From NCBI GenBank assembly GCA_965261455.1, contig OZ253453.1, positions 3,511,372 through 3,575,371 of the forward strand: 64,000 bases of DNA, given 5' to 3'. This document shows, in pieces, positions 9,044-62,300 of this stretch. The position numbers and the translations under genes were made by a program. The first letter of the stretch is position 1. Every line of letters starts with the position of its first letter. This stretch comes from Dehalococcoidia bacterium (GTDB taxonomy: Bacteria; Chloroflexota; Dehalococcoidia; SHYB01). The notes beneath the pieces were generated by a model that did no database searches, was not told the origin of the DNA, and saw only the letters and a list, made by a program, of their open reading frames with translations.

Positions 9044-10054
9044 TTAGCCTCGGAAGGCGGCCACCACGCCGGCAATGCTCGCGTCGTTCGCTCCCGGCGC
9101 GGGGTTGAAGGTGACCCGGTTGACCACACCGCCCCAGCGCTCCTCGAAGCGGTCGGCGATGTCGTCGTAGCGCCCCACCGTGACGAACGTGTCGAACATC
9201 TCCTCGGTCACCAGCTCCGCCATCTCGTCCCACTTGCCCTGCTTGGACAGCCGGTGCATCTCGACGGCCTCCTCGGTCCAGCCGTGCAGACTCATGACGC
9301 CGCGGTAGGCCGGCGTCGAGCCGTAGAACGAGATGCGGCGGCGCATGGCGGGCCGCTGCTCCTCGATCTCCTCCTCGTTCGCCCCGGCGATGTAGAACCC
9401 CTGCCCCACGAGATCGAAGTCGTCGAAGGTGCGGCCCGCCTTGGACAGACCCGCCTCGATGTGCGGCAGGATCACCTCCCGCGCATACCTTGGCGTGTTG
9501 AACGAATGCATGCGCAGGCCGTCGCAGATCTCACCGGACAGGCGCAGGTTGTAGGGATTCAAGGCCGAGATGTAGACCGGTATCCGGGGGTGCTCAATGG
9601 GCTCGGGAGTGAACAGCGGATTCGTCAAGCTGAACTGATAGAAATCGCCGGCGAAGTCGAGCTTAGTCCCGTTCTGCCAGCAGTCCCAGATATGACGCAG
9701 GGCCGCGATATACTCCCGCAGACGCGGGCCGGGCGAGTCCCACGCCACGCTGAACCGCCGCTCGATGTGCGCCTTGATCTGCGTCCCCAGGCCCAGCAGC
9801 AGCCGGCCCTTGGTGAACTCCTGCACGTCCCAAGCCTCGTAGGCCACCACCATCGGGCTTCGGGGGAAGGCGATGAGCACCGACGTGCACAGCGTCAGGC
9901 GGCTCGTATGCTCCCCGGCCAGCACGAGCCGGAAGAACGGGTCGTGGCTCGTCTCACCCGACGAGACGCCGTCGTAGCCGAGCGCCTCGGCGCGTTTCGC
10001 CTCCGCGATCACGCCCTCCAGCGTCTTCGATGCCAGCGTGTACTCGACTTTCAT
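9044..10054 (-). CDS. LLM-class (luciferase-like) flavin/F420-dependent oxidoreductase
   Basis: 336-aa TIM-barrel LLM-like sequence (MKVEYTLASKTLEGVIAEAKRAEALGYDGVS...). Confidence 0.75.
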   Translation of the reverse strand: MKVEYTLASKTLEGVIAEAKRAEALGYDGVSSGETSHDPFFRLVLAGEHTSRLTLCTSVLIAFPRSPMVVAYEAWDVQEFTKGRLLLGLGTQIKAHIERRFSVAWDSPGPRLREYIAALRHIWDCWQNGTKLDFAGDFYQFSLTNPLFTPEPIEHPRIPVYISALNPYNLRLSGEICDGLRMHSFNTPRYAREVILPHIEAGLSKAGRTFDDFDLVGQGFYIAGANEEEIEEQRPAMRRRISFYGSTPAYRGVMSLHGWTEEAVEMHRLSKQGKWDEMAELVTEEMFDTFVTVGRYDDIADRFEERWGGVVNRVTFNPAPGANDASIAGVVAAFRG

Positions 10055-41098: not shown

Positions 41099-42436
41099 TC
41101 AGCTCAGCGCGGGAGTGGTCCGTTGGGGTTCGCGGATGTCGGCGAAGAGCCTGGGCTTCCCCGCCAGCGGCGTGCCGACGAGGAGCCGGAGGATGGTCCG
41201 GGTGACGACGAAGGCGGTGAACACGCTGGCGATGATGGCTAGCATCAGGGTGATGGCGAAGCCGATCACACGCGGTTCGCCGAGCTGATCGCCGAACCAC
41301 CACAGGATGAGCATCACGATGAACGTGGTGACCTGGCTATCGCGGATCGCCGACCAAGCGCGGTCGAAGCCGGCCTCAATGGCCGCACCCAGCGTGCGGC
41401 CCGACCGCAATTCCTCGCGCATACGCTCGAAGATGATGACGTTGGCGTCCACCGCCATACCCACGGACACCACGAAGGCGGAGAGGCCGGACAGCGTCAG
41501 CGTGACGCCCACGAGCTTGAAGGCGGCGAGCACCAGCACGGTGTAGAGGACCAGGCCCCCCACGGCCACCAAGCCGAGCAGCCGGTAGTAGAGCAGCATG
41601 AAGAGCATCACCAGGGCCAGCCCAATCATGGCGGCGAGGTAGCTCTTGTTCAGCGAGTCCTCGCCCAACGTGGCGGAGACGTCGTCTTCGCGCACGACGC
41701 TGATGCTCACCGGCAGCGCGCCCGCGTTCAGTTGAATGGCGAGGGTGCGGGCGTTCGACCGCGAGAGGCCGGTAATGCGCCCGCTGCCGCTGATGACGGA
41801 TTGGACGGTGGGGGCGGAAATCAGACCGCCATCGAGGAAGATGCCCAAGGGCTGACCGATGTTGCGCCGCGTGATCTGCTCGAACATGCGCGACCCTTCG
41901 CCGTCGAAATCGAACGTCACCACGGGCAGGCCCGTCGTGGGGTCGGAGACCACGCTCGAGGTGGGGCGGAGGAACTCACCGGTGAGGTGCTTCGTCACGC
42001 CCCCGTTGCCTGCAGCGAGTGCCGGCTGGTTCTGCGAGCACTGCGTGTCGAGGCATTCGCGGTAGTCGAGCTGAGCCGTGCCCCCGATGAGGCTCTTCGC
42101 CTCGTCGATGTCGGTGATCCCAGCGAGCTGCACGATGATCTCGTTGCTGCCGCTGCGCTGGATCAGGGGCTCGGTCACGCCGAAGGCGTTGATGCGGCGG
42201 CTCATCACGTCCACCACGCCCTCGACCTGCTGGTCGGTGACGCCGGGGTCGTCGGCGCGGTAGATGAGCAGCGTGCCGCCTTGCAGGTCGAGGCCGAGCC
42301 GCAGGCCGAGCGGGCCGTCCTCCGAGCCGCGCTCGAAGCCGCCGATGTTGACGGTGCGGAAGATGAGGGACAGGATCGCCAGCGTGAAGACGATGACGAT
42401 GATCGCCAAAGACAAGCGGTTTCGACTAATCCGCAC
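41099..42436 (-). CDS. secD: protein translocase subunit SecD
   Basis: GLDLQGGTLLIYRAD P1 head start; C-terminal TM core VIIFERMREEL; 445 aa. Confidence 0.85.
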   Translation of the reverse strand: MRISRNRLSLAIIVIVFTLAILSLIFRTVNIGGFERGSEDGPLGLRLGLDLQGGTLLIYRADDPGVTDQQVEGVVDVMSRRINAFGVTEPLIQRSGSNEIIVQLAGITDIDEAKSLIGGTAQLDYRECLDTQCSQNQPALAAGNGGVTKHLTGEFLRPTSSVVSDPTTGLPVVTFDFDGEGSRMFEQITRRNIGQPLGIFLDGGLISAPTVQSVISGSGRITGLSRSNARTLAIQLNAGALPVSISVVREDDVSATLGEDSLNKSYLAAMIGLALVMLFMLLYYRLLGLVAVGGLVLYTVLVLAAFKLVGVTLTLSGLSAFVVSVGMAVDANVIIFERMREELRSGRTLGAAIEAGFDRAWSAIRDSQVTTFIVMLILWWFGDQLGEPRVIGFAITLMLAIIASVFTAFVVTRTILRLLVGTPLAGKPRLFADIREPQRTTPALS

Positions 42437-43919
42437 GCCAGCTCCTTTGGGGGCGCGCTTCGGGGTCGGCCGTGGAGCCCTCGGCCAGCAGCTTGCCGGC
42501 GAGGGCGATGGCTTGAGGCCGCGTCTCGATCTCTCCGGCGGCTTGCGCTTCTCTCAGGGTTTCCATAAGCCGACCGATGATCGGGCCGGGTTCGAGGCCG
42601 AGCGCTCCCATCAGGTCATGACCGTCGACGATGCGGGGAGCGGGGACCTCGCTCACTCTCGAATAGTAGGCGACAAGGATACCATGAATCCTTTCGGCGT
42701 ACGCGGCCCAGTTCGCGGGGTTGAGCCGGGGGCCTTTCGCCGCCAGAAAATCGGCGTAGCTCAGGTACAGCGTGTCGATGGCGGCGTCTCCCGCGTCGCG
42801 GAAGTAGCGGTACAGCGCGCGCCGGCTCGGTCCGTCCGGCTCGCGGCTGATCATCTCCGGCCGCAAGTGCTCCCGCACCATGACCGCGACCAGGCGCCGC
42901 TCACGGTTGGAGAAGCACAGCCGCTCCATAACCCCCTCGGTCATGATCGCCCCCGCCTTGGGGTGGCCGAGAAACCGGATGCGGCCATCGGCCTCGACGG
43001 TCTTGCAGGCCGGCTTTGCTACGTCGTGCAGCAGGGCGGCTAGGCGGAGGGCATCGGCCCGCGTTCGGCCGCCGCCGATGGCCTCGTCGGCGTAGGAGGC
43101 GTCCCGCTCATCCCAGGAAATCGCGGGCTCGGGATCGGGAGCAAGCGGCTCGACGTGCAGGACGCCTTGGACTTTGCCCACGGCCTCCAGGGAATGTTCG
43201 AGCACGTCCCAGTAGTGCTCCTTGGGCTGGCCGGCGCCGCGCGCCGCTTCGAGCTCGGGAATGATCTGCGTCAGCAAACCGAGGCGGTCGAGCAGGCGCA
43301 GATGGCGCGCCGCGCCGGGCGGGCGCATCAGCCGGACAAGCTCATCCCGCACGCGCTCCCCCGCGCTCGACGTAATGCGGTCCGCTCCGGCAGCGATCCA
43401 CGCCGCGGTCTGGGGCTCCATCTCGAATCCAAGCTCGGCGCAGAGGCGGACCGCCCGGGCCATGCGTACCGGATCGGCGGCCAGAACCTCTTCGCTGACG
43501 GCCCGCAGGTGTTTGGCCCGCAGGTCCTCCAGCCCGCCCGCGGGATCGACGACCTGCGAAGGCGCGACGTTGGGCCAGAGCTGCAACGGCAGCGCCATGG
43601 CGTTGATGGTGAAGTCGCGCCGCAGCAGATCGGGGCCGATGCCTCCGTCGGCGCGCGTCAAGTCGATAGACGCCGCGTCGTCGCGGGAGACGATGCGGTG
43701 GACGTCCCGCTCGGCGTCGAGCGGGACGGCGGCGGCCCCGGCGCCCCTCGCGATGGCGCGCGCCAGCTCGCCAACATCCTCGACGTCAACGGCGAGGTCG
43801 AGATCGGCCGGCTCGCGGCCCAGCAGCGCGTCCCGCACCGCGCCGCCGGCGACCCACGCCGAGGCGTGGCGCTCGCCCAGCGCGCGGCGCGCGGAGCCGA
43901 GGATTGCGGACAGAGACAT
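42426..43919 (-). CDS. cca: CCA tRNA nucleotidyltransferase / poly(A) polymerase family protein with C-terminal HD domain
   Basis: AWVAGGAVRDALLGREPADLDLAV nucleotidyltransferase head motif; HD domain region HDVAKP; start at MSLSAILG (the listed 581-aa ORF is over-extended). Confidence 0.7.
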   Translation of the reverse strand: MSLSAILGSARRALGERHASAWVAGGAVRDALLGREPADLDLAVDVEDVGELARAIARGAGAAAVPLDAERDVHRIVSRDDAASIDLTRADGGIGPDLLRRDFTINAMALPLQLWPNVAPSQVVDPAGGLEDLRAKHLRAVSEEVLAADPVRMARAVRLCAELGFEMEPQTAAWIAAGADRITSSAGERVRDELVRLMRPPGAARHLRLLDRLGLLTQIIPELEAARGAGQPKEHYWDVLEHSLEAVGKVQGVLHVEPLAPDPEPAISWDERDASYADEAIGGGRTRADALRLAALLHDVAKPACKTVEADGRIRFLGHPKAGAIMTEGVMERLCFSNRERRLVAVMVREHLRPEMISREPDGPSRRALYRYFRDAGDAAIDTLYLSYADFLAAKGPRLNPANWAAYAERIHGILVAYYSRVSEVPAPRIVDGHDLMGALGLEPGPIIGRLMETLREAQAAGEIETRPQAIALAGKLLAEGSTADPEARPQRSWRAD

Positions 43920-43942
43920 AGTCGGGGCGTCCCCCGGGCCCG

Positions 43943-44506
43943 CTACGCGGCGGGCGCTTCGCCGTACACTTCGCGCAGGGCTTCCGACTCCTCGGACTCC
44001 TCTTGCTCGATGGGTGCGAGGGTGTCGAGCGTGCCCTGCTCTTTCATGCGGTCCACGTATAGCATGCCGTCGAGGTGGTCGATCTCGTGTTCGAGCGCCT
44101 GGGCCATGATGCCGTCGGCCTTCAGGCGCACCGCCTTCCCCTCGCGGTCGAGGCCCTTGACCTTGACCCACTCGGCGCGGTTGAGCTTGCCGCGGTAGCC
44201 GGGGATGCTCAAGCAGCCCTCCGAGACCAGCCGCTCCCCGCCCTTCTTCACGAACTCGGGGTTCACCAGGACGTACTCTTCGCGGTAGACCTCTTCGGTG
44301 TCGGGATCCTGGTAGGGAATCCCCATGACGAGGACGCGAAGCGGCACGCCCACTTGGTTCGCGGCGAGGCCGATCCCCTCCTCGGCGTACATCGTCTCCA
44401 TCAGGTCGTCGATCAGCCGCTGCACCGAGGCGTCGATCTTGGAGACGCGCTTTGCCTTCCGGCGAAGCACGGACTCAGGCGCATATTTGAGCGGAAGTAC
44501 CGTCAC
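43943..44506 (-). CDS. def: peptide deformylase
   Basis: GIGLAANQVG, EGCLSIPG and HEIDHLDG motifs. Confidence 0.9.
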   Translation of the reverse strand: MTVLPLKYAPESVLRRKAKRVSKIDASVQRLIDDLMETMYAEEGIGLAANQVGVPLRVLVMGIPYQDPDTEEVYREEYVLVNPEFVKKGGERLVSEGCLSIPGYRGKLNRAEWVKVKGLDREGKAVRLKADGIMAQALEHEIDHLDGMLYVDRMKEQGTLDTLAPIEQEESEESEALREVYGEAPAA

Positions 44507-45304: not shown

Positions 45305-45338
45305 CAGAGAACGCCCGGGGCCGCCCGGGCGTTCTCTG
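45305..45338 (-). terminator. GC-rich 15-bp perfect hairpin (CAGAGAACGCCCGGG-gccg-CCCGGGCGTTCTCTG) downstream of the peroxiredoxin gene
   Basis: Direct reading; no adjacent U-tract, so the terminator role is inferred. Confidence 0.35.
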
Positions 45339-45356: not shown

Positions 45357-45809
45357 CTAGAGCTTGTCGACTTCGGCGAGCACGGCGTCGACTTGGGGAA
45401 GCCCGCTGGAGAAGATCTCCTTGTAGCGGATGACGCCCTCTCCGTCGATGATGATGACGGCGCGGCGCGCCATCCCCGCGTCCTCGTTGTAGACGCCGTA
45501 GGCCTTGGCGACGTCGCCCTTGGGGTGGTAGTCGCCCAGGATCGGATGGCTGACCCCGCCGAGGCTGGTGGCGAATGCCTTCTGGCTGAATTGGCTATCG
45601 GTGCTTGCGCTCAAAACCTGAGCGCCCTTCTCCTCGAACCGCTTGTTGGCCAAGTGGAACGAGGAGACCTGGTTCGTTCAGCCACCGGTGAAGGCGGCGG
45701 GGAACCACCCTATAACGATAGCCTTACCCTTCAACTCGCTCAGGCTGACCTTCCCCGTCGAAGACGGCAGGGTGAAGTCAGGAGCCTTGTCCCCTACTTC
45801 TGCTGACAT
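45357..45809 (-). CDS. peroxiredoxin (Bcp/PrxQ/AhpE-like) with an in-frame TGA (45678-45680) at the peroxidatic-cysteine position: candidate selenocysteine-containing Prx, or a pseudogene
   Basis: Two same-frame ORFs (45678..45866 and 45357..45653) join as MSAEVGDKAPDFTLP...AIVIGWFPAAFTGG-[TGA]-TNQVSSFHLANKRFEEKGAQVLSASTDS.... F-T-G-G-U-T matches the Prx Cp motif FTxxC(T). AAGGGAGA RBS before the ATG at 45809. Confidence 0.55.
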
Positions 45810-45899
45810 GGAGTCTCCCTTCATGGAATGCATGGGCCGCCCGCGCGGCGGGCCTATTATACTCACCCTCCCGCGTCCGTGCGCCCCCGGTCGCCCGGG

Positions 45900-45928
45900 G
45901 CGCGGCCGATGACATCGGTGGGGCGGTT
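45900..45928 (+). promoter_or_regulatory. near-consensus sigma-70-type promoter for tRNA-Gly (TGACAT-N17-TATAGT with TGn extension)
   Basis: -35 TGACAT at 45900-45905, 17-nt spacer, -10 TATAGT at 45923-45928, 16 nt before the tRNA 5' end. Confidence 0.4.
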
Positions 45929-45944
45929 TTGGTATAGTGAGCCT

Positions 45945-46019
45945 ATCCCCGCGGGCGGAAGTGGCTCAGTGGTAGAGCATCTCCTTGCCAAGGAGAGGGT
46001 CGCGGGTTCGAATCCCGTC
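45945..46019 (+). tRNA. tRNA-Gly (anticodon GCC)
   Basis: Acceptor stem GCGGAAG/CTTCCGC, D-arm GGCTCAGTGGTAGAGC, anticodon stem-loop TCTCC-TTGCCAA-GGAGA (GCC), T-arm GCGGGTTCGAATCCCGT, encoded CCA. Confidence 0.85.
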
Positions 46020-46072
46020 TTCCGCTCCATTCTCCCCCTCTTTAGACTCGGCAGCCCAGCGGCGCTTGGCGT

Positions 46073-61211: not shown

Positions 61212-62300
61212 GTGAAGGGACAGTTCAAGGTGTTCGATGCGGCGAGGCACGTCGTCGAGCCGGCGGACCTTTGGGAGAGCCGGATCGGGCCCGCCTATGC
61301 GGGCGCCGTCGAGGTACGCCGCGACGGTGGCTCGGTCACGGTCCGGGGACGTCCGACGACGACGCCGCGCCCCGACGTGATGGCGCATCCCCACTACCAA
61401 GATGCGTACCGCGCCGCCATCGCCGCGGACTTCAGCCCCGAGTCGTGTTTGGCCGACATGGACCGCGAGGGCATCGACGCGTCGCTACTCTTGCCCACGT
61501 TTGGCATGTATGCGATCTGGGCCGATCACGTCGACGGCGACCTTTCGTCGGCGATCTGCCGCGCCTATAACGATTGGCTTCACGACTACTGCGGCGCCGA
61601 CCGCGAACGGTTGAAGGCGGTAGCGCTGCTCCCGCAGCAGGATCCCGAGGCCGCGGCCGTCGAGCTTCGCCGCGCCGTGGGCAAGGGCTTCGTCGCCGGC
61701 TTCATGCGGCCCAACCAGCTTGTCGGGCGCCGTCCGCACGACGCCGCCTACGATCCGCTCTACGCCGAGGCGGCGTCGCTTGGAGTCCCGCTGGTGCTCT
61801 GCGAGATGGGCGGCTCGGTGCTCCATCAGCTCGGGACCGACCGTTTCGAGGGCTTCTTCAGCCGGGAGGCCGTCCTAGACCCCTACGAGATGATGCTGGT
61901 CTTCATGTCGTTCATGGGGCACAACGTGTTGGAGCGCTTCCCCGGCCTCAACGTCGGCTACCTCGGCGCGGGTGTCGGCTGGCTCCCCTACTGGCTCGAC
62001 CGTGTCGACGAGCACTGGGGCGGCTTCTTCGGCGTCGACGCGCCGAGCACCCAGGCTCCGAGCCTGATGTTCAAGTCGCAGGGCTTTGCCGCCGCCGACC
62101 CCTGGGAACGGACGCTGCCCGAGGTGATCGAAGAGTGCGGCGAGCATACCATCGTGTGGGGCAGCCAGTACCCTCGCCCGGAGCTCGCCGGACTCTTCCC
62201 CAACGAGCTCGACACTGTGGTCAACGACGCCCTGCTCACCGACGGGCAGAAACAGGCCGTGCTCTGGGATAACGCGGCCCGCCTGTTCAAGTTGGGCTGA
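61212..62300 (+). CDS. amidohydrolase-2 family protein (paralog of 59126-60280)
   Basis: Similar motif order (FKVFDAARHVVEPADLWE...). Confidence 0.6.
   Translation: MKGQFKVFDAARHVVEPADLWESRIGPAYAGAVEVRRDGGSVTVRGRPTTTPRPDVMAHPHYQDAYRAAIAADFSPESCLADMDREGIDASLLLPTFGMYAIWADHVDGDLSSAICRAYNDWLHDYCGADRERLKAVALLPQQDPEAAAVELRRAVGKGFVAGFMRPNQLVGRRPHDAAYDPLYAEAASLGVPLVLCEMGGSVLHQLGTDRFEGFFSREAVLDPYEMMLVFMSFMGHNVLERFPGLNVGYLGAGVGWLPYWLDRVDEHWGGFFGVDAPSTQAPSLMFKSQGFAAADPWERTLPEVIEECGEHTIVWGSQYPRPELAGLFPNELDTVVNDALLTDGQKQAVLWDNAARLFKLG

Follow-up and report, generated by a model that had tools for sequence, protein, structure and literature searches.

Peroxiredoxins with a TxxU active site are an established family of bacterial selenoproteins (PMC1794560, PMC1088965, PMC13188914). 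The selenocysteine (Sec) forms arose repeatedly from cysteine forms (PMC1794560). A 2026 review sets peroxiredoxin apart from families known from bioinformatics only, and gives PxxxTxxU as the conserved motif (PMC13188914). Described members include PrxU of Eubacterium acidaminophilum (NF040737) and 43 peroxiredoxin selenoproteins from the Sargasso Sea (COG1225). These proteins have the AhpC/TSA fold, with Sec at the peroxidatic position of PxxxTxxU, and the UGA codon is followed by a hairpin in the coding region. Prx-SUH (NF045827), another selenoprotein peroxidase in this superfamily, carries CxxU instead. For the hairpin, known as the bacterial SECIS (bSECIS), the published constraints are an apical loop of 3–9 nt with G in the first two loop positions, an upper stem of 4–16 bp, a spacing of 16–37 nt and a minimum free energy of −7.5 kcal/mol or lower (PMC13188914). 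Most published loops have G followed by G or U (PMC13188914).

Here, we describe a peroxiredoxin gene from a Dehalococcoidia bacterium. Coordinates refer to the window, the whole 64-kb stretch of DNA that was analysed. A first-pass annotation of the window had flagged the gene as a candidate selenoprotein and had called Sec-containing peroxiredoxin-like proteins an established bacterial class; the literature cited above agrees on the latter point. The gene product is predicted to share the AhpC/TSA fold with the Sec-peroxiredoxin family. Likewise, the UGA stands at the peroxidatic position of PxxxTxxU and precedes a coding-region hairpin. It passes each family feature that we tested, yet falls outside the curated PrxU and Prx-SUH models.

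Gene structure and active site

Two open reading frames on the minus strand (45866..45678 and 45653..45357) lie in a common frame and are parted by a single TGA (45680..45678). The first-pass annotation had reported this split, and the frame and translation bear it out. We define one coding sequence of 150 residues (45357..45809, minus strand), with the candidate Sec at codon 44, from the frame, the Pfam match, solved homologues and the N-terminus of orthologues. On the minus strand, it runs from an ATG (45809..45807) to a TAG stop (45359..45357). Translated from the ATG, the 150 codons read MSAEVGDKAPDFTLPSSTGKVSLSELKGKAIVIGWFPAAFTGG, then one internal stop, then TNQVSSFHLANKRFEEKG and onwards to a final DKL. 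Around the TGA, the translation is GWFPAAFTGG-stop-TNQVSSFHLANKRFEEKG. The flanking DNA on the minus strand is GGTGGTTCCCCGCCGCCTTCACCGGTGGC TGA ACGAACCAGGTCTCCTCG. Translation probably starts at the ATG at 45809, because GGGAG, which resembles a Shine-Dalgarno sequence, can be read 5 nt upstream (45815..45819, minus strand) and because the N-terminus M-x-A-E-V-G-x-x-A-P-D-F is common to the window protein and its orthologues. A GTG further upstream, at 45866, is a less likely start.

When the stop was replaced by Cys, the translation matched the Pfam AhpC/TSA family (PF00578) at 7e-33, with 113.6 bits where the cut-off is 26. The match spans residues 5–129 and profile positions 1–123 of 124. 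Of the solved structures, S. tokodaii peroxiredoxin 2ywn (1.6e-22) and AhpE of M. tuberculosis (about 8e-21) matched best. In the alignment, the TGA column corresponds to the peroxidatic Cys of both AhpE (FTGIC) and 2ywn (FTQVC). Hence, the TGA falls exactly where the first-pass annotation had put it, and its codon (45678..45680, minus strand) would encode U44, the peroxidatic residue of P37-A-A-F-T41-G-G-U44. This assignment rests on the alignment and on conservation of the TGA, described below. T41 completes the universal PxxxTxxC motif, here PxxxTxxU, and R116 aligns with the catalytic Arg116 of AhpE (..ANRGTFVVD). Both the motif and R116 are invariant in a four-sequence orthologue alignment. 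From the solved homologues, the product is predicted to adopt a thioredoxin fold with the peroxidatic residue located in helix alpha-2, in its first turn.

The 150-residue product contains zero Cys residues. Hence, it would be a one-redox-residue enzyme like AhpE. The features of AhpE-type one-Cys enzymes are found here: there is no resolving Cys, and AhpE chains are among the top PDB matches. On its sequence, we class the protein as an AhpE/BCP-like one-redox-residue peroxiredoxin that appears to represent a distinct cysteine-free subfamily. AhpE (Rv2238c; PDB 1XXU, 4X0X) resembles the window protein in size, in the FTG(I/G)(C/U) sequence, in the Arg and in lacking a resolving Cys. Its peroxidatic residue is Cys, whereas that of the window protein would be Sec. 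The reductants of AhpE are mycothiol and mycoredoxin, which we presume to be absent from Chloroflexota.

No NCBIfam model reached its curated cut-off. The best was PrxU (NF040737), with 82.8 bits against a cut-off of 270. The PrxU model has 233 positions, whereas the window protein has 150 residues, is Cys-free and is nearest to the AhpE/BCP type. Prx-SUH (NF045827) scored 50.7 bits against a cut-off of 298, and the motif here is TxxU, not CxxU.

The peroxiredoxin gene appears to be solitary. Downstream on the same strand are genes of the isochorismatase family, peptide deformylase and CCA-adding/poly(A) polymerase types. The isochorismatase neighbour is also found at orthologous loci L007 and L013; synteny is otherwise not conserved. 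No reductase partner gene is evident within the window. Upstream, a tRNA-Gly(GCC) gene (45955..46029; ARAGORN and Rfam) is divergently oriented. Read from the sequence, a perfect TATAAT hexamer lies 47 nt 5′ of the ATG (45856..45861, minus strand). This possible −10 element has no matching −35 and is offered as a lead only. A consensus scan of the window for promoters and terminators returned nothing on the minus strand. Also read from the sequence is a perfect 14-bp GC-rich hairpin with a CGGC loop, 20 nt past the stop codon (45306..45337, minus strand). It has no U tract, and the scan missed it for want of a T run. This hairpin is likely to be a transcript end, or a stabiliser between the peroxiredoxin and isochorismatase genes.

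Orthologues and selection either side of the TGA

In a search of 5.8 billion proteins, the closest relatives had 61–94% identity. All were fragments of about 85–101 residues, covering the C-terminal two thirds only. This is the pattern expected of a selenoprotein gene that is systematically split. On the contigs of these relatives, there was in each case an upstream open reading frame of 44–97 residues in the same frame, stopping at the same column. Further loci came from a scan of one genome per species. Overall, TGA occupies the column in 31 sequences (window included) with 38–98% identity. Hence, the codon is shared with 30 other independent assemblies. The loci with TGA at the column are L001–L030, L034, L036, L037, L048, L067, L079 and L088. 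They include 23 from Dehalococcoidia/Chloroflexota metagenome-assembled genomes (L010–L029, L037, L048, L088), with others from Binatia (L030), Acidobacteriota (L034, L036) and Burkholderiales/Betaproteobacteria (L067, L079). The closest genome, that of the Dehalococcoidia bacterium represented by L010, has 97.8% nucleotide identity and keeps the TGA. We refer to these sequences as Sec forms.

In more distant homologues, which come from Streptomyces and other groups, the column holds TGC. There are 52 such Cys homologues (L031, L033, L035, L049, L058 and 47 more). The U/C column is the peroxidatic position, as the alignment with AhpE and 2ywn showed. In a neighbour-joining tree, the Sec forms of Dehalococcoidia, Binatia and Burkholderiales fell in one clade, and those of Acidobacteriota lay apart.

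We compared the window gene with six orthologues using Nei-Gojobori counts, taking the halves either side of the UGA separately. In both halves, dN was far below dS. For example, comparison with L013 gave a dS of 0.91 and a dN of 0.05 in the N-terminal half, and a dS of 0.83 and a dN of 0.10 in the C-terminal half. We conclude that purifying selection acts on both halves of the gene. In five of the six comparisons, synonymous change was depressed over the 24 codons past the UGA. With L011, dS was 0.07 in these codons and 0.44 in the remainder of the C-terminal half. The exception was L013, with values of 0.69 and 0.88, respectively.

Hairpins downstream of the UGA

The RNA following the UGA folds more stably than dinucleotide shuffles of the same sequence (z = −2.66); this, the codon shuffles below and the conserved TGA put the pattern well outside what chance would give. 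Two hairpins are formed. The first, hairpin 1 (45629..45667, minus strand), is the SECIS candidate at the canonical position, and was defined by its fold, covariation, Sec specificity and codon shuffles. After a 10-nt spacer, there is a lower stem of 8 bp, UCUCCUCG/CGAGGAGA, pairing 45667-45660 with 45636-45629. Above this are an internal loop, the pairings CC/GG and CUUG/CAAG, and a 5-nt apical loop, GCCAA (45650-45646). The apical loop is 27 nt past the UGA, the upper stem is 4 bp and the free energy is about −24 kcal/mol. The first-pass annotation had described a 7-bp stem starting 11 nt after the UGA with a G-rich loop. The stem is real. Its length is 8 bp, and what had been read as the loop holds the upper stem.

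Hairpin 1 of the window satisfies every published bSECIS constraint, and the earlier suggestion that the stem lies roughly where a bacterial SECIS would sit therefore holds. When all bSECIS criteria were applied to the single minimum-energy fold, 17 of the 29 Sec-form sequences passed, including the window. Compared with the consensus bSECIS, for which E. coli fdhF is the archetype, hairpin 1 shares a 5-nt loop with G first and an upper stem of 4 bp that sits on a longer helix. The loop has the required G, but this is followed by C rather than the usual G or U. Rfam searches around the gene and across the whole window returned no SECIS family, around the gene not even at E = 10; the only match was the tRNA-Gly. 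This result is weakly informative, because bacterial SECIS elements have little sequence in common.

Hairpin 2 (45607..45625, minus strand) begins 3 nt after hairpin 1. It has 7–8 bp, GCGCUCA(G)/(U)UGAGCGC, and a GGUUU loop. It is 59 nt past the UGA in the window and 59–60 nt past it across the Sec forms, outside the 16–37 nt range of the consensus bSECIS. It was recognised from covariation and Sec specificity, and is a second conserved hairpin beyond the stem that the first-pass annotation had described.

To compare the Sec forms, we took the 84 nt surrounding the UGA in 26 distinct sequences, which align without gaps. RNAalifold recovered two helices from this alignment. In a two-hairpin structure drawn by hand, 81% of cells were paired, against 39–48% when the partners were slid by 1–3 columns. 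In twelve pairs, both partners had changed, and the observed covariation score was not reached in any of 500 shuffles. These pairs comprise 7 of the 13 in hairpin 1 and 5 of the 8 in hairpin 2, where 95% of cells were paired. In hairpin 2, the compensation links a synonymous third base of an Ala codon with its partner: U occurs with AGC (Ser) and C with GGC (Gly). Across 29 Sec-form sequences, the mean z was −2.7 for hairpin 1 and −4.1 for hairpin 2. The equivalent values for the 52 Cys homologues were +0.35 and −0.42. We conclude that both hairpins covary and are specific to Sec forms, being absent from the 52 Cys homologues. We also considered an extended lower stem encompassing the UGA (alignment columns 9–19 with 63–72). 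It was 76% paired with one compensatory pair, which is weaker than hairpin 2, and it was set aside.

We also used synonymous-codon shuffles, which hold each protein and its codon usage fixed. In the window, hairpin 1 had a free energy of −23.5 kcal/mol, compared with −8.4 kcal/mol for the shuffles (z = −5.8). For 23 genes, the mean z was −3.4. Hairpin 2 gave −12.0 against −6.9 kcal/mol in the window (z = −1.85) and a mean z of −2.2 over 23 genes. Part of hairpin 2 comes free from the GC-rich codons of A-Q-V-L-G, and a Cys paralogue at L026 has a 6-bp version. Hairpin 2 is nonetheless consistently optimised beyond the codon baseline. It constitutes a conserved additional element specific to Sec forms, which may be auxiliary or may possibly be the hairpin bound by SelB.

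The second of these roles deserves consideration. The gene could be a genuine selenoprotein gene in which SelB binds the GGU loop of hairpin 2, at 59–60 nt, and hairpin 1, of 39 nt, is a structured spacer that, once folded, places hairpin 2 near the ribosome. Together, the two would then form a displaced SECIS outside the 16–37 nt rule. We regard each part of this arrangement as a tentative proposal. When contiguous-stem hairpins with G[G/U] loops were searched for in the Sec forms, the loop of hairpin 2 fitted in 26 of 31 sequences. The loop of hairpin 1 lacks the pattern in most Sec forms, and at 16–37 nt a G[G/U]-loop hairpin is missing from the window and from about half of the Sec forms. 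Five Sec forms are without hairpin 2 (L017, L018, L022, L067, L079), and all of them have a G[G/U]-loop hairpin at 17–18 nt. The near-complete pairing of hairpin 2, and its compensation between synonymous and non-synonymous sites, point the same way. Furthermore, with hairpin 1 folded, hairpin 2 starts about 13 single-stranded nt from the UGA. Conversely, the complementary pattern of hairpins comes from two independent clades only, and hairpin 1 already passes the published minimal bSECIS model. For these two reasons, we hold SelB binding to hairpin 2 as the minority interpretation. In addition, the core of hairpin 2 is partly a by-product of codons, as the 6-bp version in the L026 paralogue illustrates, and its excess in the window is modest. 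No bacterial SECIS at about 60 nt was found in the literature surveyed. If the displaced arrangement were true, standard SECIS searches that use the 16–37 nt rule would mis-assign or miss such elements.

Probable decoding of the UGA and its implications

Taken with the conserved UGA, selection on both halves and a covarying Sec-specific hairpin, the first-pass reading of the gene as a candidate selenoprotein is well supported. We conclude that the in-frame UGA is very probably decoded as Sec, and that this is very probably a genuine Sec-decoding gene. In the model that we infer, selenium would be incorporated in a SelB-dependent manner. The gene (45809..45357, minus strand) would encode a small AhpE/BCP-type peroxiredoxin with one redox residue, the Sec specified by the UGA at 45680..45678. 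Structure 3′ of the UGA, hairpin 1 and then hairpin 2, would recruit SelB carrying Sec-tRNA(Sec). With SelB recruited, the ribosome would insert Sec and would not terminate. The enzyme would then reduce peroxide by oxidising Sec44 to a selenenic acid, with the site expected to be activated by Thr41 and Arg116, as happens throughout the peroxiredoxins. The reductant would be an external thiol, which must regenerate the enzyme because the protein is without cysteine.

The Sec machinery was sought by tblastn in the window and the fetched loci, using E. coli SelA, SelB and SelD as probes. No selA, selB or selD was found within the 64-kb window, and ARAGORN and Rfam found no tRNA-Sec there. The first-pass annotation had remarked on the same absence. 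With these probes, neither SelB nor SelD had a match in the window or the fetched loci, and ARAGORN detected no tRNA-Sec in the window or in 89 loci. A selA gene lies 5–9 kb downstream of the Sec-peroxiredoxin orthologue in three related Dehalococcoidia genomes (L016, L019, L020). The L019 SelA scored 552 bits on TIGR00474, for which the cut-off is 268. The organism presumably has the Sec machinery. Dehalococcoidia are among the bacteria richest in selenoproteins, with 46–49 genes per genome (PMC13326102).

A different explanation is that the two open reading frames are remnants of a dead Cys-peroxiredoxin, split by a nonsense mutation or by a sequencing or assembly error. Gene callers do report two open reading frames, and the 64-kb window yielded no Sec machinery. 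However, 30 other independent assemblies share the TGA, with identities as low as 38%, and among them is the 97.8%-identical L010. Furthermore, the dN/dS ratio of each half is well below 1, and covarying hairpins specific to Sec forms follow the TGA. Neither a pseudogene nor an assembly error can account for the TGA conservation and the dN/dS pattern. Judged from these sequence comparisons, such an origin is highly improbable and appears to be effectively refuted. The first-pass annotation had argued that a random nonsense mutation would not be expected at this codon, and the comparative data likewise go against a pseudogene.

Equally improbable is an altered code or general read-through. UGA is reassigned in some uncultured bacteria. 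UGA might stand for Trp, Gly or Cys in the whole organism, or a near-cognate tRNA might suppress it, with no involvement of Sec machinery. However, ordinary genes in the window stop at TGA. They include Pfam-supported genes for an alpha/beta hydrolase (46882) and a NIPSNAP protein (47269), and an open reading frame ending at 62300. This indicates a standard code with local recoding. In addition, where the window has the UGA, homologues carry the catalytic Cys rather than Trp or Gly, and a global reassignment needs no local hairpin specific to TGA forms. In a scan of the window for other genes split by TGA, the one promising candidate, at 62298, proved to be an ordinary stop with the next gene in the same frame. 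The same scan of Dehalococcoidia and Binatia loci gave no convincing second selenoprotein.

Least probable of all is a split enzyme, in which a 43-residue N-terminal peptide accompanies a separately initiated C-terminal protein with no peroxidatic residue: an in-frame TTG does lie 8 codons past the TGA and gene callers use such starts, but this TTG has no Shine-Dalgarno sequence, the first available start varies among orthologues, neither the catalytic residue nor the beginning of helix alpha-2 would be present in the product, and the Sec-specific hairpins would be left unexplained.

Bacterial Sec-peroxiredoxins are already known. What is mildly new is that another hairpin, with GGU in its loop, is conserved 59–60 nt past the UGA. 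Hairpin 2 is a modest mechanistic curiosity, and provides a concrete, testable case for the non-canonical class of bacterial SECIS that, according to recent reviews, must exist. The main practical value of the finding is for annotation. The Sec-peroxiredoxin family gains a compact, cysteine-free member with one selenocysteine, and is seen to extend over Chloroflexota, Binatia, Acidobacteriota and Burkholderiales. Among the proteins searched, the gene and its relatives are represented by two meaningless fragments, and the window protein falls below the cut-off of every curated NCBIfam model. Hence, the antioxidant capacity and selenium dependence of the abundant uncultured Dehalococcoidia are under-counted.

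Annotation and distribution of the Sec-peroxiredoxins

The closest protein-database entries for the window peroxiredoxin (P0001–P0010 and P0012, from our search of 5.8 billion proteins) are, without exception, C-terminal fragments. No NCBIfam model reached the cut-off. The subfamily is systematically mis-annotated in public MAGs as two short ORFs. Sec forms of the window-type peroxiredoxin also occur in MAGs of Burkholderiales/Betaproteobacteria, Binatia and Acidobacteriota (homologue loci L067:5531, L079:10133, L030:10133, L034 and L036). The Burkholderiales forms have one hairpin only, with an AGU(A/C)G loop, 18 nt past the UGA; the second conserved hairpin is absent. Separately, at L057:4643–4731 (Streptomyces sp. 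CB00455, complementary strand) ARAGORN called a tRNA-Pyl (CUA), which is probably a false positive.

Surroundings of the gene and stop codon use

The interval that separates the isochorismatase gene from the stop codon of the peroxiredoxin contains a perfect, GC-rich, 14-bp inverted repeat with a CGGC loop and no T tract (window 45306–45337). Rfam gave nothing beyond chance-level matches at these positions. On the other side of the peroxiredoxin gene, a promoter-like site (ATGACA-18-TATAGT, with TG; 45909–45938) is directed away from it, and a tRNA-Gly(GCC) is encoded on the forward strand at 45955–46029. The CCA-adding/poly(A) polymerase-type gene (42426–44506) was called as a GTG-start ORF of 581 amino acids, which overlaps the peptide deformylase ORF by ~230 nt. 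Its first Pfam domain begins only at residue 105. Hence, the real start is probably downstream of the called GTG.

In genomes of 68% GC, TGA is normally the dominant stop. Across the whole window, 38 long ORFs with coding-like GC3, a crude set that includes some off-frame ORFs, end in TAG (24), TGA (10) or TAA (4). TAG as the commonest stop in this crude set is unusual at such GC content.

Sec machinery, a possible reductase and possible resolving cysteines

In three Dehalococcoidia/Chloroflexota genomes, selA lies 5–9 kb downstream of the Sec-peroxiredoxin orthologue (L016:18938–20236, L019:15342–16697 and L020:17766–19052). It encodes L-seryl-tRNA(Sec) selenium transferase; the L019 copy scores 552 bits on TIGR00474. 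Neither selB, selD nor tRNA-Sec adjoins selA at these loci. In the L001–L003 lineage, the Sec-peroxiredoxin gene is adjacent to, and divergent from, a gene for a 472-residue pyridine-nucleotide disulfide oxidoreductase (1283–2701; Pyr_redox_2 plus dimerisation domain). The oxidoreductase is possibly a dedicated reductase. The window has no equivalent.

In L026 (~9430–9900) and L029 (~9420–9890), a Cys-containing paralogue sits immediately upstream of the Sec form, as a tandem pair. The paralogue is of the two-Cys type (FTGVC-T-x-E-M-C) and likewise has a 5–6 bp version of the A-Q-V-L-G palindrome. The L015–L022 clade carries Cys at the fourth residue after Sec (U-T-H-Q-C; e.g. L016:10001–10456). 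With Val at this position, the window peroxiredoxin would be unable to form an intramolecular selenenyl-sulfide. For the L015–L022 proteins, the Cys after Sec suggests that an intramolecular selenenyl-sulfide may serve as the resolving step.
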